39,747 nt of DNA from Candidatus Woesearchaeota archaeon (GTDB lineage Archaea; Nanobdellota; Nanobdellia; Woesearchaeales; B72-G16): contig QMQO01000009.1 in the NCBI GenBank assembly GCA_003650545.1, positions 1 to 39,747 of the forward strand, written 5' to 3'. Under the pieces are notes generated by a model. It saw only the letters and a list, made by a program, of their open reading frames with translations, ran no database searches and had not been told where the DNA came from. Positions 2 through 27,500 of the stretch are shown here, piece by piece. Made by a program: the position numbers and the translations under genes. The first letter of the stretch is position 1; each line of letters opens with the position of its first letter.

Positions 2-3000
2 GGTGACTTATGCGATGGTGATCAATCCTGTTGTGAGAATAAATTAACATCTCCACCCTGTTATTGGGATGGATATTGTCAAGGAGAAATCCAGGGTTGT
101 GGTGATGTTCTAGACGAAAGTCTTTGTGCTCAATTAGCCAACATGGGTGCTCCATGCGGTTGGGATAATGGACAATGTGTGGAATCAGGTGGTGGTCCTC
201 CTGGCGAATTAGTTTGTTTAGGCGGACCTGATAATTGTCCTTTAGTACCTAATCCAGATCAGTCTGATGTTGATACAGATAACGTAGGAGATGTGTGCGA
301 TAATTGTCCAGATATTTATAATCCTAACCAACTTGATTCTGATGGCGGTTATTTATGTGTTTTTGTTGGAATGCCTATGGTTGCAGGAGGATATCCTCAG
401 ACAGGCGAACTCTATTTTGACAACTCAACAGGAATTCCATACTATGTAGCAAGCTCTAATGCGATCCTTTATAATGGAATTGTGTACGAAGATTTCGTGG
501 ACCCTCCATATGAAGGTGCTGTTGGAGTGGATTATATGGGATATGGAATAGAAAATATCAAACAAGCTGTTAAAGGAGAATACACAATTTTGTATGATGA
601 TACAACAGGTTATGATTATGGCATTGATGGAACAACAGATGTAAATCTTGCTTTGATAACAACCTGTATGGGAGAATCTGGTCCTTGTTTGCATTTAACA
701 ATGTACACACCAATGAGCAAACAAGATTTCATGAATGTTTTTGCAGGTATGCCTGTAACTATTGATTTGTGGATTGATGGTATATTCAAATCATCTGCTC
801 CTGGTGAAGATTACACGTGGGATTTTCCAGAAGCATCCGGAGTGGTGTGCGGATCCTTGAGTGCAGAAGAATGTGAAAATTATGTTGAGTGTAAATACAA
901 GTTTATTTCAGATGAATTTGGAGATGCTTGTGACAATTGTCCAAATATCTATAACCCAGCTCCAGCTCCTGGTTATCCACAGCCTGATCAAGACCAGGAT
1001 GGTTTTGGAGATGCTTGTGACAATTGTGTATATATACCAAATCCAGATCAATTAGATCTAGACCAGGATCACCTAGGCGATGTTTGTCAGCCAGATATAC
1101 CAGAGGTTCCATTCACAGAGCCAGTAGATCCTTTCTGTTCAACACAAATACCTCCTGATTTAAATGTAGACACAGATGGAGATGGTATTATTAATTCACA
1201 GGATATTTGTCCTGATGAAGCTGATAATATGTGCTATCTATATAAAGGACAAAAATTAATAACAACCACAAGTTCGCACATATTTGAGACAGGCGATCAA
1301 AATGTTGCAGTTGAAATTCCAGCAGGTAGTTTTTCGAGTGATGTAATAGTTACACTGTTAGAGTCTATTCCAAATGACCAAATAAATTCAATGGTTTTAT
1401 TACGGGGAGCTGAGGTCGATATAAAAGATACTATTTGCAATGAAATAAACTGCGAAAGTGGAATAACACTTAAGATAAGATACAATCCTGTGTTGGATAA
1501 TTTAGGAGGAGTATCTGTTTATGTATATGATGAACCAAGGGATAGATGGCTTCCTTATTCAGGTGTATGTGCTAATGGGGAATGTATAATATCAATAACT
1601 GATTGCCATAAAAAATATGGTATCGCTGTATCATGTACCACTCCAAATATGAACAATAAAATGCCTCTAGGCAACACAGGATATTTTTACACAGATAGAA
1701 TCGATCAGCCAACAATCTGGTGCCCAGGAACATATTACCTGCCAGAAGAGACATCTGTAGTTGTTGATAACTTATTGTGGTGTTCGGGTTCTAAATTAAT
1801 AGGTCACATGAATACACCATCTATTATTATCGGCTATAATGAAACATCTTCTGAACTGATGGTGCATGGATGCGATATTCAGAATGCCGGAACTGGAATA
1901 TTAACATATGAAAATGGAGTAGAGAACCCAAAAATTAAAGTTTTCAACAATGTTTTCAGAGATGTTGATACAGGAATTTATTTAGGCTCCAGTTCGAATG
2001 AAAACAGAATACGTGGAAATTGGTTTGTTAACTATGAGCATAGAGGAACAGATTATACAGACCAAACAAATGCAGGAACATTCCTAGTGCTAGACAGGAG
2101 TAGTAATAATGTCATAGACAGAAACACAGTAAAATTCTTTAATACTTTTATCCAAGCTACTGGTTCGTCAGGGAACAATGTGTTAAAGAATATTTTATTT
2201 TATGGCGACAAAATTTCAGAAGATTTTACAGGATCACAGGCTGTAGCAAACATAATATTTAAGGTGCGCAATGGTTTTGTCGGAGATTCACTGTCATTTT
2301 TAAGCAATAACCTACTGAACATTAAAGAATATTGGTTAATAAGTTCGCTCACAGGAGCAATAAACAACGAAGACAATCCAAATTTCTGGGGCGTGTATAA
2401 ACAACCATTTTATGGACCTTTCTCAGCAGGTATCCATGAATTTGATGCGTATTATATTCCAAAGCAATCTATAAATGATATAGCATACTGTGCAGATTAT
2501 TCAGATAAATATGGTATGTATAGATGTATATCAAATTCGCGCTTTGCAAGTTATGTTGTACACGATATAGATAATGTTGATTACAGGCAATTATATATGT
2601 ACGCAACTGAATCTTATTCATTCACATCAGGGTACCCTATGAGTGCTGTGTACCATGTTGGTCCTACTAATACTTATTTCAGTATACCAGCAGTCTTACA
2701 GATATACACTCGCGATCAAACCAATGCAGGCGACATGCAAATATTGTGGCGTAAAGATGATTATGATACCTGGAGTATTTGGACTGATGGTTTTTGCGAC
2801 AAAGATATTGGATATTGTATAGCTGTAATAAACCAAACAGGTCAATTTATAGTAGTTGATCTAAATCCCCCTTGTGTTGATTATGATGGTGATGGTTATC
2901 TAGGAACACCATCTGGTTGCGGACTAGATTGCAATGATTATGATGCAACAAAATGGCAATTGCTTCCTGGATATACAGATGCGGATGGTGATGGGTATGG

Positions 3001-5164
3001 TGCGGGAAGTTTGTTGCAGATTTGTTCAGGTTATGCTTTGCCAAGTGGGTATTCAGATATAAACGGAGATTGTGATGATGTTGACACAGCAAGTTATCCG
3101 GGTGCGCCTGAATTGTGCGATGGTATAGATCAGGATTGTGATGGGTTGTATGATGAAGATTTCGACCTAGACGGTGATACTTACACAACCTGTGGCACAT
3201 TGACAACTAATGGTGAGAGTGTACAATCTGACTGTAATGATAGCGATGCAACTATATGTCCAGGTTGTCCAGAAATAGTCTGTGATGGTATTGATCAAAA
3301 TTGCAATGCTTATGAAGAAATACGAACATTCAATGACCAGTTATTAGTAAAATCAGAGCATAAGAATAAACAAATAAGCAAGTTCTATGATTGGGATGCT
3401 GTGGCTGAAAAATGGAGACTATTTGAAAAATATGATCCTGATGGCTTAGTGATAAAGAACAATGAAATCGGTTTAGCTGACTTTGATGGTGATGGACAAG
3501 ACGAGCTTGTTGTAAAAGAAAAGAAATGGTGTAAGAATAACTGTGACGATATAGATACATGGTTCTACGAATGGGATGGTGATAGCTGGGAACTATACGA
3601 AAGCTCAACAGACGATGGCTTACCATTGAGAGGCAGGCATGAGGTTGCAGCTTGTGACATACTTGGCAATGACGGTATTCCAGAATTGATTGTCACAAGA
3701 GAAGGTTTCAGAAAAGAAACAAGTTTCTACCATTGGAATGCAGCCACAAAACAATGGGAACTTGTTGATTCATCTTCAGATACAGGAGTGTTCCTGAAAG
3801 GAGGCGATACAGCTTGTGGTGATTATGATAATGATGGAGTGAATGAGCTAATAGTCAAGAAAAAACATAAGAGAGGCTTTAAAATATACACGTGGGACAG
3901 TATTAATAAGATTTGGGTGCTAGAAGCAGATCTTCATAAAGCACCAAACAAACCAGGTGACGATTTAATAACAGGTCATAGTGAAATCGCCATGGGCAAT
4001 GTTCGTGGTGTAGAAACAGTGGTGATTGATCCTGATGATAACCCTGACTCAGATGGTGACGGAATTGGCGATTGTTATGATCTTTGTCCAGATATACAAG
4101 GAAGCATCTACCTTGGTTGTCCAGCAGCAGTCACAACCAGCGCAAATATCTATAACATCTTTGGTAGACACATCAAACATAAAGAAGCAAGAGAAGGTCA
4201 GGAAGTATTTATATTTGACAAGCAATGTGTTGACCAAATACTCGCTTCACAGTTTGGAATCAACTGGGAAAACCTAACAGGCGAGGTGTTCACACACAAA
4301 GAAGACGAACTAAATGCAATCTTAAGCAGTGATTGTGAAGGCTTTGTTTGCTGGACAGATGAAAGTGGCGAGTGCACTGTTGGCGTTGATAATGGCGAAT
4401 ATGTTGTCTTTGGACCATTTTCAAGCACACAATGGGTACCCCACAAAGAGCAGGTATGCTATAAAAAATGCTGTGGTAAAAGGAGAGGCAGACATAAATA
4501 CTGTACAGACTACTGTGGTATTAAATGGACGATAACACCTGAACAGTTTAGCTTTGCAGTCTATAAACCAGTGTTATCACTTACAGACGAATTTGGAGAA
4601 GCTCACTTAGACTTCATCAGATTATGGTGGGGTGATAGATTAATACCTGCTGTATTTGCAGGCACAATTGTAGGTTCAGAGTTAAACATAGTTCCAGCAG
4701 AATACTTAGTAGAGATTCCAGAAACAGAGGTAACTCCTATAGTGGAAGATGCAAATGTGACTGGAGATATAGATTATATCTACCCAATATTGATGGAAGC
4801 AGACGCTCCGTGGGAAGTTGAAGTTGGTGTAGAACCACCAGAAGGTCATAATGTATCAACAGACACAGAGATTTTTGTGGATGAGACAACCGAGGTATTG
4901 ACAATTGGTTTAGAAGAAACAAACAGCACCACTTCACCAACAGGCGCGGTAGTAGGCGTACCATCAAGTGATATAGCTCAGTTTACAGTTAGGGCAAAAC
5001 ACCCTGGTGAAAGAAACTTCAAAAAACAGACAGTCACAATAAAGACCACATTTGAACCAGAAGAAGCTAAAAAAGGTTATTTGGCAACACTAACACTAAC
5101 AATAATTGCAGTTGCAATAGCCGCACTAGCTGGTTTGTTGATCTACAAAAGGTTCAGAAAATAA
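2..5164 (+). CDS. Giant Cys/Asp-rich membrane-anchored surface protein (thrombospondin type-3 Ca-binding repeats, beta-helix, MopE-like Cys motifs, FG-GAP/VCBS-like repeats); 5'-truncated by the window
   Basis: The frame is open from position 2 (GDLCDGDQSCC...) into the listed ATG at 143, so the true start lies upstream of the window. It has TSP3-type repeats (DNCPLVPNPDQSDVDTDNVGDVCD; DNCVYIPNPDQLDLDQDHLGDVC), Asn-rich beta-helix repeats (SSNENRIRGNWF), GAPELCDGIDQDCDG motifs and ADFDGDGQDELVV / GDYDNDGVNELIV repeats. It ends in a TM helix plus basic tail (YKRFRK), followed by an oligo-T tract. Confidence 0.85.
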   Translation, partial: GDLCDGDQSCCENKLTSPPCYWDGYCQGEIQGCGDVLDESLCAQLANMGAPCGWDNGQCVESGGGPPGELVCLGGPDNCPLVPNPDQSDVDTDNVGDVCDNCPDIYNPNQLDSDGGYLCVFVGMPMVAGGYPQTGELYFDNSTGIPYYVASSNAILYNGIVYEDFVDPPYEGAVGVDYMGYGIENIKQAVKGEYTILYDDTTGYDYGIDGTTDVNLALITTCMGESGPCLHLTMYTPMSKQDFMNVFAGMPVTIDLWIDGIFKSSAPGEDYTWDFPEASGVVCGSLSAEECENYVECKYKFISDEFGDACDNCPNIYNPAPAPGYPQPDQDQDGFGDACDNCVYIPNPDQLDLDQDHLGDVCQPDIPEVPFTEPVDPFCSTQIPPDLNVDTDGDGIINSQDICPDEADNMCYLYKGQKLITTTSSHIFETGDQNVAVEIPAGSFSSDVIVTLLESIPNDQINSMVLLRGAEVDIKDTICNEINCESGITLKIRYNPVLDNLGGVSVYVYDEPRDRWLPYSGVCANGECIISITDCHKKYGIAVSCTTPNMNNKMPLGNTGYFYTDRIDQPTIWCPGTYYLPEETSVVVDNLLWCSGSKLIGHMNTPSIIIGYNETSSELMVHGCDIQNAGTGILTYENGVENPKIKVFNNVFRDVDTGIYLGSSSNENRIRGNWFVNYEHRGTDYTDQTNAGTFLVLDRSSNNVIDRNTVKFFNTFIQATGSSGNNVLKNILFYGDKISEDFTGSQAVANIIFKVRNGFVGDSLSFLSNNLLNIKEYWLISSLTGAINNEDNPNFWGVYKQPFYGPFSAGIHEFDAYYIPKQSINDIAYCADYSDKYGMYRCISNSRFASYVVHDIDNVDYRQLYMYATESYSFTSGYPMSAVYHVGPTNTYFSIPAVLQIYTRDQTNAGDMQILWRKDDYDTWSIWTDGFCDKDIGYCIAVINQTGQFIVVDLNPPCVDYDGDGYLGTPSGCGLDCNDYDATKWQLLPGYTDADGDGYGAGSLLQICSGYALPSGYSDINGDCDDVDTASYPGAPELCDGIDQDCDGLYDEDFDLDGDTYTTCGTLTTNGESVQSDCNDSDATICPGCPEIVCDGIDQNCNAYEEIRTFNDQLLVKSEHKNKQISKFYDWDAVAEKWRLFEKYDPDGLVIKNNEIGLADFDGDGQDELVVKEKKWCKNNCDDIDTWFYEWDGDSWELYESSTDDGLPLRGRHEVAACDILGNDGIPELIVTREGFRKETSFYHWNAATKQWELVDSSSDTGVFLKGGDTACGDYDNDGVNELIVKKKHKRGFKIYTWDSINKIWVLEADLHKAPNKPGDDLITGHSEIAMGNVRGVETVVIDPDDNPDSDGDGIGDCYDLCPDIQGSIYLGCPAAVTTSANIYNIFGRHIKHKEAREGQEVFIFDKQCVDQILASQFGINWENLTGEVFTHKEDELNAILSSDCEGFVCWTDESGECTVGVDNGEYVVFGPFSSTQWVPHKEQVCYKKCCGKRRGRHKYCTDYCGIKWTITPEQFSFAVYKPVLSLTDEFGEAHLDFIRLWWGDRLIPAVFAGTIVGSELNIVPAEYLVEIPETEVTPIVEDANVTGDIDYIYPILMEADAPWEVEVGVEPPEGHNVSTDTEIFVDETTEVLTIGLEETNSTTSPTGAVVGVPSSDIAQFTVRAKHPGERNFKKQTVTIKTTFEPEEAKKGYLATLTLTIIAVAIAALAGLLIYKRFRK

Positions 5165-5297: not shown

Positions 5298-6149
5298 ATG
5301 TTCAAAATAGACACTAGAAACGAAAAACTCAAGAGAGTTATACACAATGTTCTCTTAAATAAGAAATTACAAACATACTGGGTTTGCTCTAACATTAATG
5401 CGATAGATAGAATGGGGTTTAATGACCATGGCCAGAAACACATAGAAATAGTTATTAAAAATGCATTGACTATGTTTAATATTCTTAAAAGTCGCGGAGT
5501 CTACTCAAACATAATAAAGCACTACGCAAAAAATCCATTTGTCAAAAACTATGGTTTTAGTCATGATGATTCTGAAGTTATCATTTTTCTAGCAGCTTGT
5601 ACGCATGATATTGGCCACGCTGTTAGTCGCAAGGACCATCATTTTCATAGCACCTATTTAGCATTACCTTTATTAGAGGAAATCCTAGACGATATTTACC
5701 AAGAAGAACAACGTACAATTATTACTTCAGAAATTTTGCATTGCCTCGCTACAAACTATGCCAAAAAGAAACCCTTAACACTGGAAGCAAGCATTTTAAG
5801 GGTAGCAGATGCTCTTGATATGGCTGCTGGCCGCGCAAGGATTGCATTTAAATCAAATGCAGTAATTCCTGGGAAAAAAAAAGGAGAGTTCACAATTATA
5901 ACCACCGACGAAAAACCTGTTATTCATCAAACGTCTTCTTTAGGTATAAAAGAAATCATTATTAAACCTGCCCAAGAAAAACCAATATTAATAGAGATTC
6001 TTGTTGTGGATTCTTCAGCGATTTTCCAGATAGACGAATTGCTAAGGAAAAAAATTCGCGGTACGGGCCTAGAGAAATACATACAATTAATCATAAGAAG
6101 AGTTCCTGGAAAAACACACCAATTCAAAAAGATTAATTTTAAAATTTAG
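5298..6149 (+). CDS. HD-superfamily metal-dependent phosphohydrolase (COG3294-like)
   Basis: Motifs NDHGQKH, HDIGH and ADALD..GRAR are present. The His usually found between HD and the last Asp appears replaced (ILHCLATNY). No GYP motif. Confidence 0.8.
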   Translation: MFKIDTRNEKLKRVIHNVLLNKKLQTYWVCSNINAIDRMGFNDHGQKHIEIVIKNALTMFNILKSRGVYSNIIKHYAKNPFVKNYGFSHDDSEVIIFLAACTHDIGHAVSRKDHHFHSTYLALPLLEEILDDIYQEEQRTIITSEILHCLATNYAKKKPLTLEASILRVADALDMAAGRARIAFKSNAVIPGKKKGEFTIITTDEKPVIHQTSSLGIKEIIIKPAQEKPILIEILVVDSSAIFQIDELLRKKIRGTGLEKYIQLIIRRVPGKTHQFKKINFKI

Positions 6150-6161
6150 AGAGGAATTCAA

Positions 6162-8522
6162 ATGCTTAAGCATGCTGCAGTTATAGGTTTAGATACTTTG
6201 AATATTGATTTGATGCGTTACATACCATCTTTTGATATTTTTAAAGGTTATTCTTCTCTTGAAGTATTAATAGATCCTAAATGTGATAGAATAGTTTTAG
6301 AAACAGAAGAAGACAGAAAACAGTACGAAGAAGCAATAAGAGGATTCCCCATCGTTTCCCAGAGCAATGGGGGTTGCTTGTTTAATGTTCTTTCTGCATT
6401 AAAGAGCTCAATAGGAAAGGAAAATCATCTTATTTTAGCCGGAACCCTTGGTCTTGATGAAAATGGAATGTTAGACGAGTTTGCACGTTCATATTTAAGA
6501 GAAGCGCATGAAGCAGGCATAATTGTGCTTGCCAATAAAGTACCTGTTAGTGCTGGCAAAGGTGGTACTGGTACAATAGAAGTCCTAATTTCAGATAATC
6601 CTATAGATAAACAATTTAAAGAACGCAAATTTGTAGCAAACAGAGGGGTTTCAACAGAAATTGTTTTTGACAAATCTTATTCTTCTTATCTCTACAAATT
6701 CCTAGCAGATCACGAACTCATTCTTCACTATACAATTGACTCAGAAGAAAAATTTCCAATCTATTTCTACAGGTCAGATGAACACAGACTACCTTTGCAC
6801 AAAGCTAACGGTAAGGTTCATCCCAAATATATCAACTTTGATTTTGTCTCAATCGATACAATTACCAGAAAAAGAGATTATCTTGAGGGAACACGAAGGA
6901 TTGCTGTCACAAATGGTTTTGCTTCTGAAAAACACCCCGATGTAGCTCTTAAATTCTTACAAATTGCTAGACAGAATGGCTGTGAAACCTTCTTTAGCTT
7001 TTCTAACCCAGATGTTGTTAGACATATCAATGACCTTTCTAAGAAAACAGGAACTGATTATTTTGAACAAATAATGAAAAACACAATGATCATCTCAAGC
7101 AATAAAAATGAATACGAATCAGTTGCTTCAAAAAACAATTCCAAAACTTTAAAAAACCATCCCCAAGTTTCTGTTTCTTTGTTGGATTCTTTAAGGAACA
7201 CAGAGGTGTTTCCTCCAGCATTATGTGTGTGCACCATGGGAGAAAATGGGCTTGTTCTAGTTACAAAGTCTCCTTTAAAACCAGACTTAGTAGAAGTAGA
7301 AGCAGATAAAATTTCACCAGAACTGTTTGCAGACACAACAGGCGCAGGCGATTTTATTCTTAGTAAACTTGTGAAGTACACCTTGTTAACGAGAAATATC
7401 ACTGATTTGAACCCATTCATGTTAGCTCAATATTTGCGTGAAGCAGGTACAGAGGCGTGTAAGTTTAAGGGGGGGAGTGTGCTATCTGTCGATAAGGAAA
7501 AAATGTTTATGAATCGCGTGATGAAAATCAACGATGAAGTAAGACTCGAATGTAGCAACAGTGATGAAGTTATAGAATGCTTATTAAAGCATTCTAAGGA
7601 TTTTTCAAAAGCAACAATGGGTGTGGTATATGAAGTTAGAGATGATAAGATAATGCCAATAGCTAGTACAGAAGAGATTAAACTGTACAACGATCTCGAC
7701 ATTTCAAAAACAGTGTTCAAAGAATTTCTAGAAGGCAAAGAAAAGATTCAGCTGAACGATGTATCGCAAATACTTTCTGACACTATCGCCTTTGATCACC
7801 ATACAAATGCAAAAGCTATAATTGCTTACCCTGTATTTATCGATGATAAATTAAAATACATTTATGAGCTAACTCATCATACAAAGGGTAAATTTAAATC
7901 AGACGAAGCTTACTTCTTAAGATATATTTGTACTGCTAAATATATCGATGATTCCTTACATCACGATCTTGACGAGAGGACTGGGTTATATAACGATGAA
8001 TATATGCAAAAACGTTTAAGTACAGAAATAGAAAAACTGAAAAGATTTAAAGACAGCGCCACACTGGTAATGGGAGATATTGATTTTTTTAAAAGAGTAA
8101 ATGATAACTATGATCATATAAAAGGAAACGAAGTTTTAAAAGAATTTGGCAAAATCTTTCACATAGCATTAAGAAATACTGATGTTATTGCTCGCTGGGG
8201 AGGTGAAGAATTTCTATTCTGGCTTACAAATACACCTAAAAAAAATGCAGAAATTCCTCTTACCCGGTTACAAGAGTTTATTTTAGCAAATAAATATTTG
8301 TCAGAGTTAAGAAATGACGCAGAAAAAAGAAGATTGCAAATCCCGCTGACAATGACTTTCGGCTATGTTGGATTCCCTGAAGATGTTAATGATATAAATA
8401 TGTCTACAGAAGATCTTATAAAAGACATGATCGAAAAAGCAGATTTGGCCCTTCTATATGGAAAAAGTAAATTAAATCGTAATGTTATCGTTCCTTATGA
8501 TTCTTCATTATCTTCACAGTAA
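6162..8522 (+). CDS. PfkB/ribokinase-family (adenosine/nucleoside kinase-like) domain + GAF-like domain + GGDEF nucleotide cyclase fusion
   Basis: The N-terminal region has PfkB motifs NGGCLFN, GTLGLDE, TGTIEVLI...ERKF, SNKNE, TMGENG and DTTGAGD (7332-7352). A GAF-like middle follows (AIIAYPVFIDDKLKYIYEL). The C-terminus has DERTGLYN, DIDFFKRVND, an RNTD I-site and RWGGEEF (GGEEF at 8199-8213). RBS gagg, 12 bp after the HD gene. Confidence 0.85.
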   Translation: MLKHAAVIGLDTLNIDLMRYIPSFDIFKGYSSLEVLIDPKCDRIVLETEEDRKQYEEAIRGFPIVSQSNGGCLFNVLSALKSSIGKENHLILAGTLGLDENGMLDEFARSYLREAHEAGIIVLANKVPVSAGKGGTGTIEVLISDNPIDKQFKERKFVANRGVSTEIVFDKSYSSYLYKFLADHELILHYTIDSEEKFPIYFYRSDEHRLPLHKANGKVHPKYINFDFVSIDTITRKRDYLEGTRRIAVTNGFASEKHPDVALKFLQIARQNGCETFFSFSNPDVVRHINDLSKKTGTDYFEQIMKNTMIISSNKNEYESVASKNNSKTLKNHPQVSVSLLDSLRNTEVFPPALCVCTMGENGLVLVTKSPLKPDLVEVEADKISPELFADTTGAGDFILSKLVKYTLLTRNITDLNPFMLAQYLREAGTEACKFKGGSVLSVDKEKMFMNRVMKINDEVRLECSNSDEVIECLLKHSKDFSKATMGVVYEVRDDKIMPIASTEEIKLYNDLDISKTVFKEFLEGKEKIQLNDVSQILSDTIAFDHHTNAKAIIAYPVFIDDKLKYIYELTHHTKGKFKSDEAYFLRYICTAKYIDDSLHHDLDERTGLYNDEYMQKRLSTEIEKLKRFKDSATLVMGDIDFFKRVNDNYDHIKGNEVLKEFGKIFHIALRNTDVIARWGGEEFLFWLTNTPKKNAEIPLTRLQEFILANKYLSELRNDAEKRRLQIPLTMTFGYVGFPEDVNDINMSTEDLIKDMIEKADLALLYGKSKLNRNVIVPYDSSLSSQ

Positions 8523-8618: not shown

Positions 8619-10172
8619 ATGAAAACAAAAAAAGAACTGGGTGATTTGATTGACCTTAAACTATGGAATAAACTTCAGGCTAGCTTTGCCCAGGCAATAA
8701 AACTCCCTGTGCTCACAATAAATCCAGATGGTGAGATCATCTCAATCAGCCGTGATTTTCCGTTCTTTTGCCAAATGATTGAGAATAACGAAGAAGGCGC
8801 AAGAAAATGTACAGAATGTCGCAAACTAAATTTTGAAAAACTAAAGAAAGATGAAAATCGAATTTTATTTTATTATTGTCATGCAGATTTACTAAATATA
8901 ATGGTTCCAATCACGGTTAAAGGCGAACAAGTAGGTGCTGTTGTTTGTGAGTCTATACTACAAACAAAGAAAAACGTACCGAAGTGCAGAAAGGCGTCAG
9001 AAACTACAAAAATACCAACAGTTGAGTTTATTGATGCTATAAACGAAATGCGTATCCAAAAAAGAGAAGATGTAGAAAATTATGCAAAAGTTTTGTACAT
9101 TCTTTCTAATACTATTCCTGAGCTTGTACACCAAAAAGTGACGTCAGATCAAAAGATAAATGAATTAACAATTCTACATGATATCTCTAAAATGTTAAGT
9201 TCAACTCTAGAAATGGATAAAATGCTTGAAACTACAATGAAATTCATGAAGACTGCAGCAAAAGCAAAAGCATGCAGCACAGTTATAATTGAAGAAAATA
9301 GCAAAAAAAGATTTGAATTTGGAGAAGGCACTAATCAGTACATTAGCTTTGAGCAAGCAACTGTTGAAGAAGTCCAGAAGACAAGAAAACCTGTTGTGAT
9401 TCCTAATATCGAGAGTGAATCAGACAATAATATGTCAATAATATCTATTCCTATGAGTGTGAAAAACAAAGTAATCGGAGCAATAAATATATATGGCGCA
9501 CCTATCGAAAAGATGGGTGAGCACGATCTGAACTTTTTAACTATCATAACAAACCAAACAGCGTTAGCTGTTCAGAACGCCCAGCAATACGAACAAATCA
9601 AAGAACTAGCAATAACTGATAAACTAACATCATTGTATAACAGGCGACATTTTGAAAAACTAGTAGATACAGAGATTGAGCGTAGTAAACGTTATTCACA
9701 TCCGTTATCAATAGCTTTGCTTGACATAGACAACTTTGGTCACTACAACAATACGCATGGTCATCCTCGCGGTGACGAACTACTAGAGAACCTTTCAAAT
9801 ATATTAAAGCAGTGCACGCGCAAGATAGATATTCTTGGCAGATACGGTGGTGAGGAATTTATAATAGTCATGCCCAACACGAACGAGCAAGACGCGATAA
9901 ATGTTACTGAGCGAATAAGAAAAGCTATTGAAGAATTTGATTTTTATGGCCGTGACAAACAACCACTTGGAAAGGTTACAGCTTCAATTGGAGTTGTCAC
10001 TAATTTCAATTTTTCCAAAAAACAAGCTGAGTTAGTAGAAGCTGCTGACAGAGCACTCTACAATGCAAAAAATTCCGGCAGAAATCGGGTTATACATGAA
10101 ATCATTCCTGGTAACGATCCAATGGAACAGAAAAGCTTTGATGACTTTGTATTTAAAGGTGTTAAGGACTAA
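8619..10172 (+). CDS. PocR sensor + GAF + GGDEF diguanylate cyclase
   Basis: PocR Cys pattern (FFCQMI...KCTEC...YYCHADL...VPI), then GAF (ISIPMSVKNKVIGAINI...LAVQNAQ). The cyclase has ITDKLTSLYNRR, LDIDNF, an RKID I-site, RYGGEEF (GGEEF at 9846-9860) and ADRALYNAKNSGRN. Confidence 0.9.
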   Translation: MKTKKELGDLIDLKLWNKLQASFAQAIKLPVLTINPDGEIISISRDFPFFCQMIENNEEGARKCTECRKLNFEKLKKDENRILFYYCHADLLNIMVPITVKGEQVGAVVCESILQTKKNVPKCRKASETTKIPTVEFIDAINEMRIQKREDVENYAKVLYILSNTIPELVHQKVTSDQKINELTILHDISKMLSSTLEMDKMLETTMKFMKTAAKAKACSTVIIEENSKKRFEFGEGTNQYISFEQATVEEVQKTRKPVVIPNIESESDNNMSIISIPMSVKNKVIGAINIYGAPIEKMGEHDLNFLTIITNQTALAVQNAQQYEQIKELAITDKLTSLYNRRHFEKLVDTEIERSKRYSHPLSIALLDIDNFGHYNNTHGHPRGDELLENLSNILKQCTRKIDILGRYGGEEFIIVMPNTNEQDAINVTERIRKAIEEFDFYGRDKQPLGKVTASIGVVTNFNFSKKQAELVEAADRALYNAKNSGRNRVIHEIIPGNDPMEQKSFDDFVFKGVKD

Positions 10173-13331: not shown

Positions 13332-13919
13332 ATGCCTATAGAACGTCCAATAATTAATTATGTTTTGAAATACAAAGAGGTGTTTGATCCTTGGGAACTT
13401 TATCTATTCATGAGAGAGTGGGCTATTGAAGAAGGCTGGGTATCTCGTAACGAAACAGAATTTAAGGAAACTTTTTATTTACAAAAGGAAACCAGTGCGG
13501 GCACAGAAATCTGGTATTGGTGGCGCTTCCATAAACCAATAAGTTCATTTTACAGATACGACTACAAAATAGATGCACACATATTATTTCTTAAGCCACA
13601 TGAATTAATAATTGAAGGGAAAAAGCTTAAGACTTTCCACGCTGAAATAGAGTTCACAGTGCGTGGTATACTTGTGATGGACCAAGAAGGTAACTGGGAG
13701 AAACACTGGTTATTGAAACACCTTTTAACACGCTATTTTATTAATCGAATTTACAAGAAGGATATTGAATATCACGGCCTTGTAATTTCTAGAGAAGCCA
13801 AAAAACTACAGGAATTTCTGAAATCATACTTTCAAATGGGCTCATTTGAGCGTGATCGTGAAGAGCGTTATTTTTTCGCAAAGCAATCTGGTCAAGTTCA
13901 GCCAGGCAGGATGAGATAA
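13332..13919 (+). CDS. Hypothetical protein, paralog 1 of a tandem triplet
   Basis: Shares blocks with the next two ORFs (YKEVFDPWELY..M..W; LVMDQEGNWEK; LQEFLKSYFQM). 1-bp gap to the next gene. Confidence 0.8.
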   Translation: MPIERPIINYVLKYKEVFDPWELYLFMREWAIEEGWVSRNETEFKETFYLQKETSAGTEIWYWWRFHKPISSFYRYDYKIDAHILFLKPHELIIEGKKLKTFHAEIEFTVRGILVMDQEGNWEKHWLLKHLLTRYFINRIYKKDIEYHGLVISREAKKLQEFLKSYFQMGSFERDREERYFFAKQSGQVQPGRMR

Positions 13920-13920
13920 A

Positions 13921-14448
13921 ATGCCAAAGTACGAGATGCATAAAAAATACTTATACAAAGCTCCTGGAAGGCAGATAGACAAAATTGAATACTCTGGGAT
14001 TGTAGACTGGGATGGTTTATATGCTTTAATTTCAAACTTTTTTATTTCTAGGAGGTATATTTTCACAGAAACATCAAATAAATTCAAAGCAGACAAAATA
14101 GGCTATCATTATGAGATAGAAATGGAAGCCTGGCGCAAAGTTACAAATTATTTCAAATATTGGCAAAAACTTTATATTAGAATCTGGGAAAAAGAACTTG
14201 TTGAAGTTATTAAAGAAGGTCAGAAAAAAAAAATGTACAGAATGCGTTTTTTTATTGAATTTATGCCTGCATTAGAGACAGACTACCAAAAACGCTTTGA
14301 AAAAAGCGAATTGGGAGAGAAATTTAGAGATTGGATTGAGAAGTACCTACTCAAACGCGAAATTGAATTTAGACACTGGGACAGTCTCTATTATGAAACA
14401 ATTGCATTGCGTAACGAGATAAAAAATTATTTAAACATTCAAGTATAG
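13921..14448 (+). CDS. Hypothetical protein, paralog 2 of a tandem triplet
   Basis: Shared blocks YSGIVDWDGLY, AWRKVTNY, LETDYQKRFEK and IKNYLNI. Confidence 0.8.
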   Translation: MPKYEMHKKYLYKAPGRQIDKIEYSGIVDWDGLYALISNFFISRRYIFTETSNKFKADKIGYHYEIEMEAWRKVTNYFKYWQKLYIRIWEKELVEVIKEGQKKKMYRMRFFIEFMPALETDYQKRFEKSELGEKFRDWIEKYLLKREIEFRHWDSLYYETIALRNEIKNYLNIQV

Positions 14449-14454
14449 TTAAAA

Positions 14455-14970
14455 ATGGCAGAAGAAATGATTGTTGTGGATCATAAAACCTTGGACTACC
14501 AAGGCTTAGTTGATATTCCTGAGTTTTATAAAGTAGTAGATGGTTATTTTAAACGTAGAGGTTACGATAAAAAGGAAGCTTTGACAGCAGAAAATGTTAC
14601 AGAAACAGGAAAATACATGGAAGTTCGGCTAGAACCATGGAAAACACTAACTGATTATGCGCAGAGCAAGTTTGTGATACGCATACAATTCTTTGACACG
14701 AAAGAAGTCGAAATAGAGATTGACAAAGTGAAAAAACGTATTCATCAAGCTCATGTTAAAATAGTAACAGATGCATACCTTGTAACAGACTATGAAGGGA
14801 GATGGGAAGAAAATGCTTTTTCATTTTTCATCCGCACTCTGATGGACCGTTATTTTTTAAGAAGCCTTACCAACAAACAACGTGCAGAGATAGCCGAAGA
14901 CGTTGAGCGCTTTTATCAACTTATTGGTTCATTCTTGAACATACAGAAATATAGAATGTCCACATATTGA
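14455..14970 (+). CDS. Hypothetical protein, paralog 3 of a tandem triplet
   Basis: Shared blocks YQGLVDIPEFY, PWKTLTDY, LVTDYEGRWEE and IGSFLNI. 6-bp gap from paralog 2. Confidence 0.8.
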   Translation: MAEEMIVVDHKTLDYQGLVDIPEFYKVVDGYFKRRGYDKKEALTAENVTETGKYMEVRLEPWKTLTDYAQSKFVIRIQFFDTKEVEIEIDKVKKRIHQAHVKIVTDAYLVTDYEGRWEENAFSFFIRTLMDRYFLRSLTNKQRAEIAEDVERFYQLIGSFLNIQKYRMSTY

Positions 14971-15607: not shown

Positions 15608-16744
15608 ATGGAATTATCAAAAGAAGAACTCTTCAAAATAATAGTAATATTAATCGCTAGCGAGCAGAGAGCAATCACAGTAAGAGAACTCTCCCATGAA
15701 TACCAATCAATAAGGGATATTATCCAAAAAACCAATAAAGAGTTCTCTAACCTTACAAACACAGAATTTTTAGAACAGTTTAATCTAAGATATGAAGACA
15801 CGAATTTTATATACTTACAATCCAAGGTAAGATCTCTATTCGACAAAGTGTTTAGAAGTATTCCCCTAATCGAAAAGGGAATGAAGAAACAACCGTTTTT
15901 TTTAGACGGTAGTGGAAAAGAGATCTGGTGTGATGCGTGGCGAATTAGAAGGTTTAAAGATATAAACACTTTAGAAAAATGTATTAATTTTGGACTAAAT
16001 ATAAGTAATTTAACTAAGAGGAGTAATGCAGAATTTTTCGGTCCGTTAAGAAATGTGAGTACTATTTATCATAAAACAAAAATACTTCTATATCTAAACG
16101 AATCTTCTGGCAAATCGTTAAAGGTTGGTGAATTATGTGATAGGTTCAGCCAGGACGGTATATCTTCTGATTACAGAATCTTATACAGGATTATAAAAAG
16201 CATAAATGGATTTAACGGTGTGATTACTTTAGACGAACTGGTATCTAAGGAAGAAAGAAAAGCTTATAGATGGGTGACACAAAAAACGCTTGATCAGATA
16301 AAACTTATTGGCCCATTAAAAGTACATCCTACTAGGACAAGAAAAGTTGCAGAAATTTTATATAACAGCCATCTGGAAGATTCTACAAGATTGTATAATG
16401 CCCAGGAGCTTACAAAAATGTTTAATCTAAAACAAGCAAAAAATCCCTCTAAGACATATTCGGCTATGATCCTTAGAGAACTAAGAAAACAAGGGTTAGT
16501 TGAAGAGATATCCCAGAGGTTTTATGCGAAAGCGACACTTAATAGTGAAGGATGTTTATTTACTAATAACATTCTACTTCCTTTAAAATCTGCAGTTTAT
16601 GGCTATGAAGAAGGAATTGAATACATTGAGTCATTCCAGCCTTCCAAAGAACAAATAGAACTGTCACTAATAAGATATGCATTGTATAAAAAACAGAGGT
16701 TATTATCTAGAAAAAAAAGGGAGACAACAGTAAAATTAAAATAA
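15608..16744 (+). CDS. Hypothetical basic protein, possibly with repeated winged-helix segments
   Basis: Long ORF with wHTH-like segments (KILLYLNESSGKSLKVGELCDRF; RKVAEILY...YNAQELTKMF...ILRELRKQGLVEE). No catalytic motif recognised. Confidence 0.6.
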   Translation: MELSKEELFKIIVILIASEQRAITVRELSHEYQSIRDIIQKTNKEFSNLTNTEFLEQFNLRYEDTNFIYLQSKVRSLFDKVFRSIPLIEKGMKKQPFFLDGSGKEIWCDAWRIRRFKDINTLEKCINFGLNISNLTKRSNAEFFGPLRNVSTIYHKTKILLYLNESSGKSLKVGELCDRFSQDGISSDYRILYRIIKSINGFNGVITLDELVSKEERKAYRWVTQKTLDQIKLIGPLKVHPTRTRKVAEILYNSHLEDSTRLYNAQELTKMFNLKQAKNPSKTYSAMILRELRKQGLVEEISQRFYAKATLNSEGCLFTNNILLPLKSAVYGYEEGIEYIESFQPSKEQIELSLIRYALYKKQRLLSRKKRETTVKLK

Positions 16745-18202: not shown

Positions 18203-18661
18203 ATGGCGATAGAGGACATCTATCTGGAATTGGCAGAGAAACACGAACTTCCAGATTACCATGAGTTCAACAAAGAATTTGAGATTTCTAGCATAGACAC
18301 TGAAGAATTTCTTTTACGCGAGATCAGGAGGAAGATGATGGAGCGCTTTGATTACTATGCTAAGATCTTACAAGAGTTATTCCAGCCAGATCCGCATAGC
18401 AGTTCTATATTCGAGGCAAAAAATTTTACAGACAAAGACCGCGAAAACATTTTCAATCTTTACAGTAAGATCATGGCGATGATGCGTCATTCTGTTGTTG
18501 TCAGTTTAGACAACAGCGATGAGCAGAATGCTAAATTCATTAATAGTTCTTATAAAGAATGGTTAAGGATAAAAGAGAAGGTTCTTCCTATTGCGATGCG
18601 TATCAAGAGTACTTGGGAGAATCACTTTGTTGATAAGATCAAAGCAGAATATTTTGGATGA
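18203..18661 (+). CDS. Hypothetical alpha-helical protein
   Basis: Intact 152-aa ORF with typical codon usage (LAEKHELPDY.EF.KEFEIS...EYFG). No function recognised. Confidence 0.75.
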   Translation: MAIEDIYLELAEKHELPDYHEFNKEFEISSIDTEEFLLREIRRKMMERFDYYAKILQELFQPDPHSSSIFEAKNFTDKDRENIFNLYSKIMAMMRHSVVVSLDNSDEQNAKFINSSYKEWLRIKEKVLPIAMRIKSTWENHFVDKIKAEYFG

Positions 18662-21327: not shown

Positions 21328-21879
21328 TTATAGCTTTTCCATAACCATAATACTTTTCATCATGCTAAACTTAACACCAGGATAAGATTTCTCAATGTTG
21401 TCAAGCATCTTGATAATATCTAACATATACTTATCTCTTTCTTTTTTTGAAAATTTTAGTTTTTTAATCATGCAGTATTTTTCAGCTTCAGCATCAAGTA
21501 CATTTCTCAAAGGAAAAATTTCTTTTTTATTCTTTTTCCAACCCTTGCCCCTAAAAACAGCCCCAAGATAATCACTAACATAATCTTCAAGGGTTGCAGG
21601 AATCACTATTTTATTGTAACTCTTATTAATTCTCTTTAAAACCTTAAAGTTATAGTTTCTCAGTGCATTATCAAGAACATTTTTTAATACTATCGCTCCT
21701 GCGCTGTTATCATCTAACAACATGATTGTGTTTCTGATTTTAACATTATAGTCAACTCTTAATGTTTTTCTTATTCTCTTATCAACAACTTTGAGAAAAC
21801 AACCCTGACAATAGGGATTACTAGAGATGTTAACTGTTGCTTTTCTCTTGCCACATTTTCTGCAGATCATTTTATACAA
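21328..21879 (-). CDS. Degenerate TtuA/NcsA/Ctu2-like (PP-loop superfamily) protein with N-terminal Zn-binding motif
   Basis: CRKC...YCQGCF...KRIRK, then TLED, FPLRNV...E..KY and LDNIEKSYPGVKFS. The PP-loop SGGKDS is replaced by DDNSAG. Confidence 0.6.
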   Translation of the reverse strand: MYKMICRKCGKRKATVNISSNPYCQGCFLKVVDKRIRKTLRVDYNVKIRNTIMLLDDNSAGAIVLKNVLDNALRNYNFKVLKRINKSYNKIVIPATLEDYVSDYLGAVFRGKGWKKNKKEIFPLRNVLDAEAEKYCMIKKLKFSKKERDKYMLDIIKMLDNIEKSYPGVKFSMMKSIMVMEKL

Positions 21880-22209: not shown

Positions 22210-24000
22210 TTATTTTTTCCTTTTAACCAATTTCTTACCTTTAGGTTTATAGATTTTAATAGCAACAACATTGCTTTTGTAATACAGAATCCCTATCATA
22301 AAGCCAATTATTAATCCAGCAATCAAAAATATAATTAATAACATTTTTGAATAGTGTTTGATCTCTTTCAGATCAACCTTCTCTCCAGGCTGTTCTTCTA
22401 AATATAGATCAAGGTTGCTCAATTCAAGAGAATATTCGTAGTACAACAAAGAAGAATATTTATCTGTCATATTCAGACTGTTTCCATACTCATAATAGCT
22501 ATAAGCAAGTATTGGAAAATTTCCTTTTTCAATTTGTTCCAGTAAGCTTCTTTCAACAGCTATTTTTTTTTGACCAAGGTAATTATTAATGCTATCATTA
22601 CTAACAGTGATGATACTCATATAAAAATTACTCTGAGCTTTTGCTCTGCTAGATTGGAATAAACAAAATTCATAATCCCCTATTTTAGAAGCCATTTTTG
22701 CTTCGTCAACTATTTTCTCAGCTTCTCTAAAGACACCAGGAAAGAACAAGTCAATGTACTGTACACGTTGCTCAGCTTCTGCAAGTTTAGTCGTACACGA
22801 ATTTTTCAAAGCAGAACTATCAAGCCTTAACCTTTTTCCAGGATAATCAAAAAAATCAGACCAGAATAGAGCACTCTCAAACCTTTCTATGCTGTATGCA
22901 AAGTTCATTGCAGCTACCTCACTGTTGTTTATGTTGTCTAAGCCTTTTTTTAGATGGTCCTTGGCGTCAGATAAACGCTCTCTCACAATCATCTTTGTCT
23001 GAAGATTGGTTATAGTATCAGTTTCCGCGTTTTTTATTTTTTCTTCCAAGCTAGAAATCAAGTGTTTGATTTTCAACGCTAACTTCATATAACCCTTCTC
23101 ATCTAATTTATTATTCAAAATCTCTAGATATTTCAATTGAACATTTGCACCAAAACAAAAGCTTGCAGCAGAATAAAAATTACCGTCTTTACGAGCTCTA
23201 ATAGACTTGTTAAACATTTCCATTGCACTTTCTTTAAGTTCTGTCTCATTCTCTTCTAGTTGAATCCCAACACTTTTCTCAATCAAATGTTCAGAGATTG
23301 TACAGATTTTATCTGCAATACTTTTCATCAAATTTGCATATTCACTTGTTGCAACAACATATCCACTTTTCTTTTCATACTTTGTGCCAATAAATTCCAA
23401 CATTCCATCATATAGGTTTGAAACCTCAACAACCTCAACACCTTTTTTCTTTCCATAATAAACTAAGTCAATTGTTTTATTTCCTTCTTCATATAATCTT
23501 TCTCCTATAGGGATCAAAACTTTTTTTATTTCGGCTTTAGCTGCTGCATCAATCTTTGCTTTGAGACCACCTACTGGGCCTATTACACCCCCTGAATTAA
23601 TCGTGCCAGTCACAGAAACATCTTGATCAACAGCTAAGCCATCAAGAGTTGCAATTGTTAATAATGTAATTGCGGAACCGGCACTAGGCCCACCAACTAA
23701 CGCAGACTCAGCCCTTATTGTGTAGAAAAAATCCAACTTGCTGCAATCTTTATTTAGGAAGTCACAGGCAATTTCTTTAGCAATTCTAGCAGACATCTGA
23801 GTATCTAGCTTTGTTATAGGATACGTGTCTATAAAGACGCGGCCATTTCCTTCTTCAATCTCAACAGTGAGTTCAGCAACACCACCAATAAATTCACCAT
23901 TTTGTTTTTCAGCAACAGCTAACAACTTCATCTTGTTAGAAACAGCTTGTACACTTAAAACAAGCAATAATAGTATAAGTAACCATGCGATTTTTTTCAT
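22210..24000 (-). CDS. Secreted/membrane-anchored Lon-type (S16) Ser-Lys protease lacking the AAA+ module
   Basis: GGPSAG (catalytic Ser), VTGTINSGGVIGPVGGLKAKIDAA (catalytic Lys), a helical C-terminal region and a C-terminal TM plus basic tail. The start is reassigned to ATG 24000 (signal peptide MKKIAWLLILLLLVLSVQA, TATA at 24023-24030). The 52 extra upstream codons in the ORF track are AT-rich promoter sequence. Confidence 0.88.
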   Translation of the reverse strand: MKKIAWLLILLLLVLSVQAVSNKMKLLAVAEKQNGEFIGGVAELTVEIEEGNGRVFIDTYPITKLDTQMSARIAKEIACDFLNKDCSKLDFFYTIRAESALVGGPSAGSAITLLTIATLDGLAVDQDVSVTGTINSGGVIGPVGGLKAKIDAAAKAEIKKVLIPIGERLYEEGNKTIDLVYYGKKKGVEVVEVSNLYDGMLEFIGTKYEKKSGYVVATSEYANLMKSIADKICTISEHLIEKSVGIQLEENETELKESAMEMFNKSIRARKDGNFYSAASFCFGANVQLKYLEILNNKLDEKGYMKLALKIKHLISSLEEKIKNAETDTITNLQTKMIVRERLSDAKDHLKKGLDNINNSEVAAMNFAYSIERFESALFWSDFFDYPGKRLRLDSSALKNSCTTKLAEAEQRVQYIDLFFPGVFREAEKIVDEAKMASKIGDYEFCLFQSSRAKAQSNFYMSIITVSNDSINNYLGQKKIAVERSLLEQIEKGNFPILAYSYYEYGNSLNMTDKYSSLLYYEYSLELSNLDLYLEEQPGEKVDLKEIKHYSKMLLIIFLIAGLIIGFMIGILYYKSNVVAIKIYKPKGKKLVKRKK

Positions 24001-24188
24001 ACATAAAGATAAAAAAATAATATTTATAAAGATTGTGTATTTAAACCATTTAAAAATTAAAAAATAAAATAACAAAATAAAAAAATTTATATATAATGTT
24101 TGTTTTTTCAGATCTGGGAGAAGTGGGATCAACACATAAAGATAAATTTTAAGCAATATTTTAAGTAATAAAACACCAAAAGGTTAAA

Positions 24189-24506: not shown

Positions 24507-27500
24507 TCACTCATTTTTCTTGATATTATACTTTTTATGATTCTTGTGTGTACTTTTAAACATTCTCATCAACTCATCATACTTAGACCTCTTTGGTTTT
24601 AACAATAAAACAATGACAGAAATCAACACAATGATAATGCTGATAATAACAATAATCTCCTGTAGGGAGAATGGTAGTCTAATCTCAGCAATCCATTTTT
24701 GCTTGGGTTCAACAATTTTTTCTGATACCAAAACAGCTTTTTCAGCAGGGGCTAGAGCTACAGGTGGTTCTTTTTCAGTCACTTCTGGTTTTTTTTCTAC
24801 ACTTGGTGCTGGAGCTTTGAACCCCTTCACTGTGATTGCAAAATAACTAAATCCAGGGGTTTCAGCTTCGTAATAAATATATTGGCTATCTTCTCTAATC
24901 ACTTTTGTGGGAAGTTCGTTCCAGCTGCCATTATAGCGTGCAAGTGTAACATTGTTAACATTAATACCATTATTTGAAATCCATAATTTGCTAACCTCAA
25001 ACCTAACTTTTGCAACCAAGATATTCTCAGTAGGGATATTTGTACTGATATTGACGTAGGCCCCAACAAAACCTTCTATTTCAGGTACTGTTAATTTGCC
25101 AACCTGTGCAACAGTAAACTTAGCGTCTGTAAAGTCTATGTTAAGTTTTACTTTTAAAGCATCAATACCCAGTACATCAAAGCTGACTGTCTTTTCAGTA
25201 TTAGCTCTAATCGTTGCATAAATCTTGGTAGTTGCATTTACAAAAACACTAGGAATGTAAGTTGCAAAACTCCCTCCTCCACCACTGCTACCACCTCCAC
25301 TGGTTGATGTAATTGTACAGCTTTGGCTTTCTTCAGGTTTATTATTGATAGTGCCACAGTTGTTTACGTCAGTACAAGTTCTGGTTTGGGTCCCACTAGA
25401 ACAAGAACTCCAACTTGTGCAGCTCCAAGACTCGGTGCATTGTTGCTTAACAGCCGAATGTACTAAGCCTGAGACTTTGTATTGTGTATCATTTGTAGAA
25501 AGCGCACAACTATAATCGCCACTTGTACCTGGACAGATTATATAATATTCATTTGTATCATTACACCCATCACTTATCTGTGTTAAACTAGAAACCTCTT
25601 CATCCTTTATACATACACTTGTCTTGTTGGTGTCTATTATATCAACATAAATACTTTTTTTAACACTTTGAGAACTTAAATCCAATCCGCGAACAATAAC
25701 ACTACCAATAGTGCTTGTTGAGTTCTGTACTTTTATACTTATGTCTGCAAGATTCAAGGTTTCATTCTTGCTAAAGTTGAAATCAAATCGTACAATAGGC
25801 TTGCTTGCATTACCTATCATGACAATCCTTGTCCCGTTAAATAGCTTACTAAGATTGGTTTCACCGTCAATAGTAACATTAACCGCTTCTACATTTATAT
25901 CTATATTAGAGGCAATTCCATTTAGTGTATCCTGATTATCGATTATACCATCGTTATCATCATCTGTATCGTTTATGTCTGGTGTTCCATCATCGTCTGT
26001 GTCTCTTACTATTATAAACCTGGTTTGGTTAAAACCAGTCAGTGAGGCGGAATCAATAGACCAGACATCGATTGTGTGAGTTGTATAGTTATATAACGAA
26101 ACAACAGTCGCTATTGAAGAACAATTATTACACAGTGTAGCATTTGCTTCTGTATCTAATCTATATATTGAATCTACAGGTTCGCTAAATGTCACATTCA
26201 GCCAGACGTTTGGAGAGCTTCTTGTTATTGTCGATCCGTTCTGTGGACTATTAATGATCACATCTGGATTAGTAATATCTTGACAGCTTGTTGCATTATC
26301 TATGCAGGTTTCCTGAAGAGAACATGCATCATGTAATACCCAATCACCTTGCAATGCCAATGTTCCATCACAAGCACCAGTACCTGTACCGCAATATTGC
26401 ACAATGCTCTGCTTCCAGAGATCATCCCCTAGGGCTGTTCCGTTTGGACACCCATAGTCTACACCATAACTTGCATTACAAATAGTTGTCCCTGGATCAT
26501 TCACATAGCTGTCACAACTGGCGAAGATAATGCTTCCATTTCCATCACAAGTGTTATTAACGTCATAATAGTTTCTACATATAGTATCAAGATAATCACA
26601 GTCTGTGGTATTTACATATGTTCCAGACGGCATGTTGGTGTAATTGTTACATATTCCATAATTAATTCCGCCAGAGCCATCACAAGTTGTGTTTGTATCG
26701 TGGTAGTCTCTACATATATTATCTAAATAATCGCAATCAGTGGTGTTAATAACATACCCGTTTGGTTTATATAATGCAACGTGGCATCCAGTAGTACTAT
26801 TAAAAATATAGCTAATGCAAGTCACGTTAGCAGGTAGATTAACCAGACTCTCGTTATCGCATTGATCTAATGCATCGCACAGACCGTCACCATCAGTATC
26901 TATGTTTGAAATTGTTGCAATAAAAACATAACTTACATTGTACTCTCCATCTCCCGCGGTTGCTGTTACAGCTGCAGCACCATACCAACATCCGGCTGAG
27001 CTAACATTAATCCTATTTCCGTTTAAGGAGCTTACAACATTCGTTTCGTTATCAGATACATAATAAAGTAAGGTTTTGTTATCTACGTCAGAGAAATAAT
27101 TAGTCAAGTTAGCCGTCATATTATAGCTGTTCTGTTGTACAACTATATTAGGAATAGATGTAATAACAACAGGAGCATCATTCACAGCAGTTACAGTGAC
27201 AGTGAAATCATCTGATGTATTATATTGTCCGTCTCCTGCTGTAACATTTACAACACCAACACCAAAATATTCAGTATTGGGTGTCACATTAATTACATTT
27301 CCTGTTATCAAACCAACAGATATGTTAGGATTAGAGCTTGTCAGATAATAAGTTATTGTGCTATCAGGATCAGAAAAATGATCGTCTAAGTCAACCGTTG
27401 TATTGAACTCATCCTCAACAATCGTCATGTCTGAGAGTGGGACATCCAATGTTGGTGGATCATTAACTGCAAGAGTAAAGGTTCTATTATTTACCCCCCA

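Follow-up and report, generated by a model that had tools for sequence, protein, structure and literature searches.

What does a protein do in which a domain resembling a small-molecule kinase stands in front of a GGDEF cyclase? The question is raised by an open reading frame (ORF) in a 39,747-nt stretch of DNA from a Candidatus Woesearchaeota archaeon (contig QMQO01000009.1 of assembly GCA_003650545.1, positions 1 to 39,747 of the forward strand), which was analysed as a whole and is called the window below. The ORF (6162..8522, + strand) starts with ATG, has the sequence GAGAGG 7 nt 5′ of this start codon and encodes a protein of 786 amino acids (aa). An initial annotation had described it as a PfkB-type nucleoside kinase joined through a GAF-like domain to a GGDEF cyclase in a single frame, and the 786 codons do run without interruption through a kinase-like, a GAF-like and a GGDEF part, in that order. 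We propose, with a probability of about 0.45, that the product is a three-module signalling enzyme, i.e. a cyclase gated by a ligand, with a sensor that descends from a small-molecule kinase.

The C-terminal domain (aa 603-786; 7968..8519, +) is unambiguously a GGDEF domain, by sequence and by fold. It scores 93.3 bits against Pfam GGDEF (PF00990; cut-off 23.8, E=1.8e-26) and 100 bits against TIGR00254 (cut-off 37.4, E=1.1e-28), and carries the motif GGEEF at aa 680-684, so that this part of the initial annotation is confirmed. For aa 451-786, an AlphaFold2 (AF2) model computed from an alignment that included 34 relatives has a predicted local distance difference test score (pLDDT) above 90 across most of aa 601-786. 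Foldseek matched the model to 3IGN with a template modelling (TM) score, TMt, of 0.89 (E=3.4e-15), and PleD, WspR, DgcR and SiaD were also among its matches.

The N-terminal part (aa 1-440; 6162..7481, +) is probably, rather than provenly, a divergent domain with the PfkB/ribokinase fold. All five signature elements of the family are kept, in family order, in an otherwise orphan sequence. The first is N-I-D (aa 14-16; 6201..6209, +), which closes the first strand; in an HMM alignment that places aa 2-93 on profile positions 2-62, it falls on what we take to be the substrate-binding Asn/Asp of ribokinase. It is followed by GGCLFN (aa 70-75, with G70-G71 and N75; 6369..6386, +), the N-terminal signature of PfkB proteins, which falls on the ‘GGkgaN’ columns of the profile and, by BLASTP, on AGGTIGN of Escherichia coli Gsk. 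The NxxE motif (N314-E317; 7101..7112, +) coincides with ‘pNeeE’ of the local profile and is presumably the Mg/phosphate site of PfkB kinases, while TxGxxG (TMGENG, aa 358-363; 7233..7250, +), matching ‘slGaeG’ of the profile and TAGPIG of Gsk, is presumably the ATP-binding loop. The last element, DTTGAGD (aa 391-397; 7332..7352, +), lies on the ‘dtvGAGD’ columns and corresponds to NTNGAGD of Gsk; we take it to be the anion hole, with Asp397 as the putative catalytic base. The same motif set and order is found in ribokinase, IolC, aminoimidazole riboside kinase, adenosine kinase and Gsk. Since these elements are kept despite extreme divergence, it can be argued that the nucleotide/substrate site is under selection, and the motifs suggest that a kinase-type site is used, be it for turnover or for binding only.

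The N-terminal domain is about 100 aa longer than typical PfkB kinases, and it differs from them in being fused to signalling domains. An insertion of about 60 aa relative to PfkB kinases (aa ~175-235; 6684..6866, +) remained unaligned when hhalign was run against a profile of ten PfkB sequences. HMMER and hhalign disagree on the lid hairpin (aa 134-165 or aa 187-210), and the HMMER placement at aa 187-204 makes the boundaries of the insertion uncertain.

Several weak searches converge on the PfkB family. The Pfam PfkB model (PF00294) gave 15.9-17.8 bits (cut-off 25.8, E=0.002-0.008), its best match (E=0.0022) placing aa 253-398 on model positions 138-260. The NCBIfam ribokinase model TIGR02152 gave 14.9-17.2 bits (cut-off 299.65, E=0.0025-0.013), and fructokinase PRK09434 (E=0.054) aligned in register with both over the same stretch. 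When 7.3 Gb of plasmid sequence was searched with tblastn, there were six matches (E=0.2 to 9), every one of them on a gene of the PfkB family: two iolC, three genes for aminoimidazole riboside kinase, and a sixth, in an unannotated record, whose product is 78% identical to IolC. These represent two independent gene families. In a pairwise BLASTP alignment, aa 192-408 were 26% identical to Phaeobacter IolC (E=4e-8, calculated for a single comparison). When aa 1-450 were compared by features with the ESM Atlas, 29 of the 30 neighbours were PfkB clusters, at a score of 0.95. Most of the Foldseek rows obtained with a model of this part also name PfkB kinases, with the limits given below.

The ten-sequence profile scored 31.5 bits, which none of 2000 shuffled sequences reached, and hhalign against it aligned aa 1-405 to Gsk 30-366 at a probability of 96.4%. 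Both values come from a biased profile, as three of its ten members had been chosen for matching the query, almost wholly in the C-terminal half of the domain (the selecting matches spanned aa 192-408 or 345-437). The N-terminal half was therefore tested separately. Residues 1-190 scored 7.1 bits, reached by 2 of 3000 shuffles, and residues 1-231, which overlap the match region by about 40 residues, scored 7.7 bits, reached by none of 3000.

Relatives of the N-terminal domain were sought more widely. Run exhaustively against 1.84 billion representatives, phmmer (E<=0.001) returned only the target protein, and so did word-indexed searches at 432-1376 aa and, with E<=10, at 247-788 aa. No PfkB chain was found among PDB sequences by phmmer of aa 1-450, tblastn of aa 1-450 against phages gave no match, and tblastn of aa 1-193 against plasmids gave a single irrelevant one (E=8). 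A scan of GTDB species genomes pointed to one locus, a helicase gene; the match came from a short peptide pattern and was discarded as spurious.

The region between the two domains is probably GAF-like (aa 466-590; 7557..7931, +). The best GAF_2 match has E=1.5e-4, although the GAF_2 scores (18.1-22.5 bits) stay below the Pfam cut-off of 28.6. In the ESM Atlas, the full-length protein has only GAF+GGDEF clusters as neighbours, whether compared by features or by structure, and the scores are modest (features 0.89, TM 0.25-0.48). In the AF2 model the region has low confidence (pLDDT 34-60). A helix leading into the GGDEF domain is predicted at aa ~581-602 (7902..7967, +; residues 131-152 of the 451-786 construct), with pLDDT of about 46-60; in this feature the target resembles regulated cyclases.

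The conserved positions of the GGDEF domain were surveyed in 156 aligned domain instances, taken from relatives of the C-terminal half and from the neighbouring gene. The RxxD I-site and the GGEEF motif of the target are canonical: RNTD (aa 671-674) is followed, after five residues, by GGEEF (together 8172..8213, +). The I-site columns hold Arg in 144 and Asp in 152 of the 156 instances, and the GGEEF columns are conserved in 155/156. The metal- and phosphate-binding residues D639, K644, N647 and R678, of which Asp639 binds metal, are each the majority residue of their column. Canonical cyclases have Asp at the position that reads guanine through its Watson-Crick face (the GD of GHxxGDxxL); the target has Asn656 (8127..8129, +). 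This column contains Asp in 154 instances, Glu in one and Asn in the target only. Two further substitutions occur in the target alone: the near-invariant Gly of ‘GH’ is replaced by Asp (G651D; 8112-8114), and the Leu of ‘DxLTGL’ by Arg (L606R; 7977-7979).

Natural substitution at the base-reading position is shared by the target and the Hypr GGDEF enzymes (GacA; PMC6456294). In that source, Asn339 is assigned to the sugar face and residue 348 to the Watson-Crick face, nine residues apart; N647 and N656 of the target are likewise separated by nine residues. According to that study, canonical enzymes have Asp as residue 348, and those making cyclic GMP-AMP have Ser. The Hypr enzymes combine Ser with GGDEF, whereas the target combines Asn with GGEEF, and Ser at the Watson-Crick position together with GGEEF is reported to be inactive (PMC6456294). 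As Asn replaces the guanine-reading Asp, the product may be one other than cyclic di-GMP (c-di-GMP), and the cyclase may also differ in its substrate preference. Asn656 could relax or shift the purine preference, or could weaken substrate binding.

The combination of PfkB-like, GAF-like and GGDEF domains appears to be undescribed. The initial annotation had not recognized the architecture as a described one, and we found no example of it among the listed GGDEF relatives, in the ESM Atlas or in the literature. PF00294 is present in the precomputed domains of none of 120 GGDEF relatives (the best 120 of 233), and the precomputed annotation of the target itself also lacks it, so that divergent fusions would be missed in this comparison. 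The ESM Atlas search, which covers clusters of at least 50 members, contained no PfkB+GGDEF cluster. Literature searches returned no PfkB+GGDEF fusion; one candidate paper naming both domains proved to mention them in unrelated contexts. Those of the best-matching GGDEF relatives that are about as long as the target (P0006-P0013) were considered as possibly sharing its N-terminus and are tandem GGDEF-GGDEF proteins.

PfkB-type domains are found in multi-domain proteins, such as YeiI, with its N-terminal helix-turn-helix domain, and the bifunctional HldE. E. coli YeiI (362 aa, annotated as a putative sugar kinase) shares a PfkB-type domain with the target, but its partner domain is different. 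The closest described architectures on the cyclase side are sensor-GAF-GGDEF diguanylate cyclases, archaeal ones included. Sidorov et al. (2026; PMC13725321) describe archaeal GGDEF proteins linked to GAF, REC, PAS, 7TM and PocR-GAF domains in DPANN and other metagenome-assembled genomes (MAGs), and show in bacterial hosts that archaeal GGDEF proteins act as cyclases; c-di-GMP itself is given as undetected in Archaea. The main text and one supplement file of that paper contain neither ‘PfkB’ nor ‘ribokinase’. Its GAF-GGDEF and PocR-GAF-GGDEF proteins have in common with the target a helix, a C-terminal GGDEF domain with GGEEF and RxxD, an archaeal context and, probably, a GAF-like domain. The target differs from the proteins of PMC13725321 in its additional 440-aa PfkB-like N-terminus and in having Asn in place of the guanine-reading Asp.

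Regulated cyclases of the GGDEF type act as dimers, and a sensor, a GAF domain, a helix and the GGDEF domain form their usual input-to-output order. This order is the one observed here, and it favours a sensor-gated pairing of GGDEF domains. The kinase-derived domain would bind ATP and a hydroxyl-bearing small molecule, either a nucleoside or a sugar. Lid closure or a rearrangement of the dimer would then be relayed through the GAF-like domain and the helix, and the two GGDEF domains would be brought into, or kept out of, a catalytic dimer. The cyclic-dinucleotide output would thereby be set by metabolite and energy status. What is observed in this scheme is the domain order, the set of motifs, the fold of the GGDEF domain and the archaeal surroundings of the gene; ligand binding, allosteric coupling and the role of the N-terminal domain, in turnover or in sensing only, are inferred.

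Several results weigh against such a ligand-gated enzyme. No curated PfkB model reaches its cut-off, and the same is true of the curated GAF models. The AF2 model of aa 1-450, computed without an alignment, has a pLDDT of 35.6 and is unusable as a fold model. When this model was nevertheless passed to Foldseek, 32 of the 36 listed rows were PfkB kinases by name (three were unrelated and one was unclear), but the rows have TM<=0.24 at a root-mean-square deviation of ~20 Å; they express local resemblance in 3Di states and residues and do not confirm a fold. A profile of seven E. coli PfkB paralogs alone gave the N-terminal domain 1.1 bits, which 12 of 2000 shuffles reached, and hhalign against this E. 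coli-only profile aligned the DTTGAGD stretch alone, at a probability of 2.4%. As the N-terminal domain has no homologs, the conservation of the fusion, of its motifs and of any coupling cannot be assessed, and a gene decaying within this lineage is still conceivable. In the GGDEF domain, the unique L606R, G651D and D656N at near-invariant positions could impair the binding of GTP. The PfkB domain claimed by the initial annotation is kept as far as motif order and the convergence of weak searches go, and stands below every curated cut-off.

The direction of signalling could also be the reverse. The GGDEF domain would then be an I-site receptor for c-di-GMP made by a neighbour, and would regulate an active N-terminal kinase of the PfkB type. 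A possible source lies 96 nt 3′ of the target ORF, where a gene for a PocR-GAF-GGDEF protein begins (8619..10172, +; Pfam PocR E=7.3e-31, GAF E~1e-9, GGDEF E=1e-46). Its product is of the canonical diguanylate cyclase type, keeps the Asp of GD and fits the PocR-GAF-GGDEF type of archaeal MAG proteins described in PMC13725321. The GGDEF domains of the two neighbours are only 29% identical, and the downstream gene is therefore not a recent duplicate of the target.

The intact RNTD site, the intact catalytic motifs of the kinase and the substitutions at positions 606, 651 and 656 all fit a receptor of this kind. Receptor-type degenerate GGDEF domains, however, usually lose GGEEF together with the metal- and phosphate-site residues, whereas GGEEF, Asp639, Lys644, Asn647 and Arg678 are all canonical in the target, and the order from sensor to GGDEF is that of input to output. 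We regard a reversed flow as unlikely.

In another explanation there is no allostery. The protein would be bifunctional, an active guanosine or nucleoside kinase and a cyclase that share the guanine-nucleotide pool as in a ‘Rosetta-stone’ fusion, with the GAF-like domain as a spacer or dimerisation module. Besides the intact kinase motifs, several likenesses to nucleoside kinases speak for it. Adenosine kinases and E. coli guanosine kinase head the Foldseek rows of the N-terminal model. BLASTP aligned two weak segments, in collinear order, with E. coli Gsk (aa 5-77, E=0.42; aa 386-404, E=0.046), and the spacing from the first strand to GG is long, as in E. coli Gsk and unlike ribokinase. Those Foldseek rows, however, derive from the model with pLDDT 35.6 and have TM<=0.24, and the best sequence matches, IolC and aminoimidazole riboside kinase, are kinases of the sugar type. 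The product of a nucleoside kinase is moreover a nucleoside monophosphate, two phosphorylation steps away from the nucleoside triphosphate (NTP) that a cyclase uses, so that nothing would be channelled directly from the kinase to the cyclase. A bifunctional fusion thus seems improbable to us.

By these matches, the domain may stand closer to nucleoside kinases or to sugar kinases. The initial annotation had called several segments adenosine-kinase-like. Its strings are all present and in order (TGTIEVLI at aa 136-143, ERKF at aa 154-157, FSFSNPDVV at aa 278-286 and SNKNE at aa 313-317), whereas the label given to them is not established.

In the most novel version, the protein would be an archaeal synthase of cyclic dinucleotides with a specificity and a control of its own. 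An active nucleoside-kinase-type domain, reading the supply of salvaged nucleosides and ATP, would gate a GGDEF domain that, owing to Asn656, takes some purine NTP in place of GTP, or a mixture, and makes a messenger other than c-di-GMP, in a lineage where c-di-GMP signalling is not yet known from chemical evidence. We consider this version decidedly unlikely.

A further concern is that the ORF might be an artefact, i.e. a mis-assembly or a join made in gene calling, or a relic with an N-terminus that does not fold. The protein is a singleton, a single member sequence occurring in identical form (786 aa) on two contigs. Its N-terminal part has no relative in the 1.84 billion representatives or in the GTDB species genomes and was not folded by AF2, and its GGDEF substitutions are unusual. 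In its composition, however, the sequence shows no trace of a join: all three parts fall among the other genes of the window, archaeal housekeeping genes included, in GC content, in GC content at third codon positions and in codon usage, and the domain junctions are without a compositional seam. With a composition so uniform and so like that of its housekeeping neighbours, the gene looks native to the genome of this uncultured archaeon. Its frame is open over the full length, the start of the ORF coincides with the first strand of the PfkB fold and has GAGAGG upstream, and intact kinase motifs are unlikely in a decaying sequence.

The singleton status has a parallel throughout the window. Every conserved window protein looked up at 90% identity (topoisomerase I, fibrillarin, the YchF-like GTPase, TrmB, DsbA-like, PHP and DUF1003) is likewise the sole member of its own cluster among ~15 billion sequences. 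The lineage is thus essentially unsampled, and the isolation of the target reflects this. An artefact or a decayed gene is very unlikely in view of these data.

That the N-terminal 440 aa are unrelated to PfkB and match its motifs by chance is the reading we rate lowest: it would account for curated models that all stay below cut-off, for the missing PfkB chain in the phmmer search of the PDB and for an E. coli-only profile near noise, but independent weak searches converge on one family, the motifs keep the family order and spacing, and shuffled sequences rarely or never match the observed scores.

The archaeal origin of the contig is evident from its other genes. The window encodes an archaeal-type topoisomerase I (TIGR01057, topA_arch; 761 bits, cut-off 458), a fibrillarin-like 2′-O-methyltransferase (241 bits, cut-off 113), an archaeal-type YchF-related GTPase (PRK09602; 546 bits, cut-off 387) and a regulator of the TrmB type, which together identify the contig as archaeal. 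The initial annotation had suggested that the kinase domain may sense or phosphorylate salvaged nucleosides or sugars and so couple a host-derived supply to second-messenger synthesis in a biosynthetically reduced symbiont; nothing among the genes of the window demonstrates reduced biosynthesis or symbiosis.

Directly upstream of the target lies a gene for an HD-domain phosphohydrolase (5298..6149, +; Pfam HD E=3e-6). Only 12 nt separate its stop from the target ORF, which makes co-transcription of the two genes probable. Among PDB sequences, the HD protein matches YedJ best (E=0.012). Its identity as an HD-GYP phosphodiesterase was considered and rejected, as only the generic HD model matches and no HD-GYP model does. 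On the other side, the PocR-GAF-GGDEF gene is followed by a DUF1003 gene.

Two giant ORFs lie elsewhere in the window. One, open at the 5′ end of the window (2-5164, +), encodes a protein of at least 1720 aa in which MopE-type metal-binding repeats are accompanied by a weak NosD-like stretch and, at the C-terminus, a hydrophobic segment. The other (24507-34235, -) encodes a 3242-aa protein in which a subtilase S8 domain occurs together with DUF11 repeats and a PPC domain. Both have the look of large surface proteins. A 648-aa ORF (22210-24156, -) matches only the Lon C-terminal proteolytic domain (aa 155-217, E=2e-12), and no AAA+ module was detected in it. No Pfam match (E<=0.001) was found for ORFs of 152-378 aa at 13332-14970 (+), where three small ORFs lie side by side, and at 15608-16744 (+), 18203-18661 (+), 21328-21879 (-) and 37859-38899 (+). 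No tRNA genes or Rfam families were found across the 39.7 kb of the window.

The value of the finding is limited, as the protein occurs in one known genome and its conservation cannot yet be judged. Asn656 offers a simple, testable handle on how the GGDEF fold selects its nucleotide. A GGDEF cyclase is defined by the module in front of it, and in this one that module appears to be derived from a metabolic kinase. The host is an archaeon, and according to PMC13725321 archaeal GGDEF proteins were shown to work only in 2026, and in bacterial hosts only. If the ligand-gated reading is true, a metabolic-kinase fold serving as the input module of a GGDEF cyclase would be a new link between second-messenger output and metabolite or energy status.

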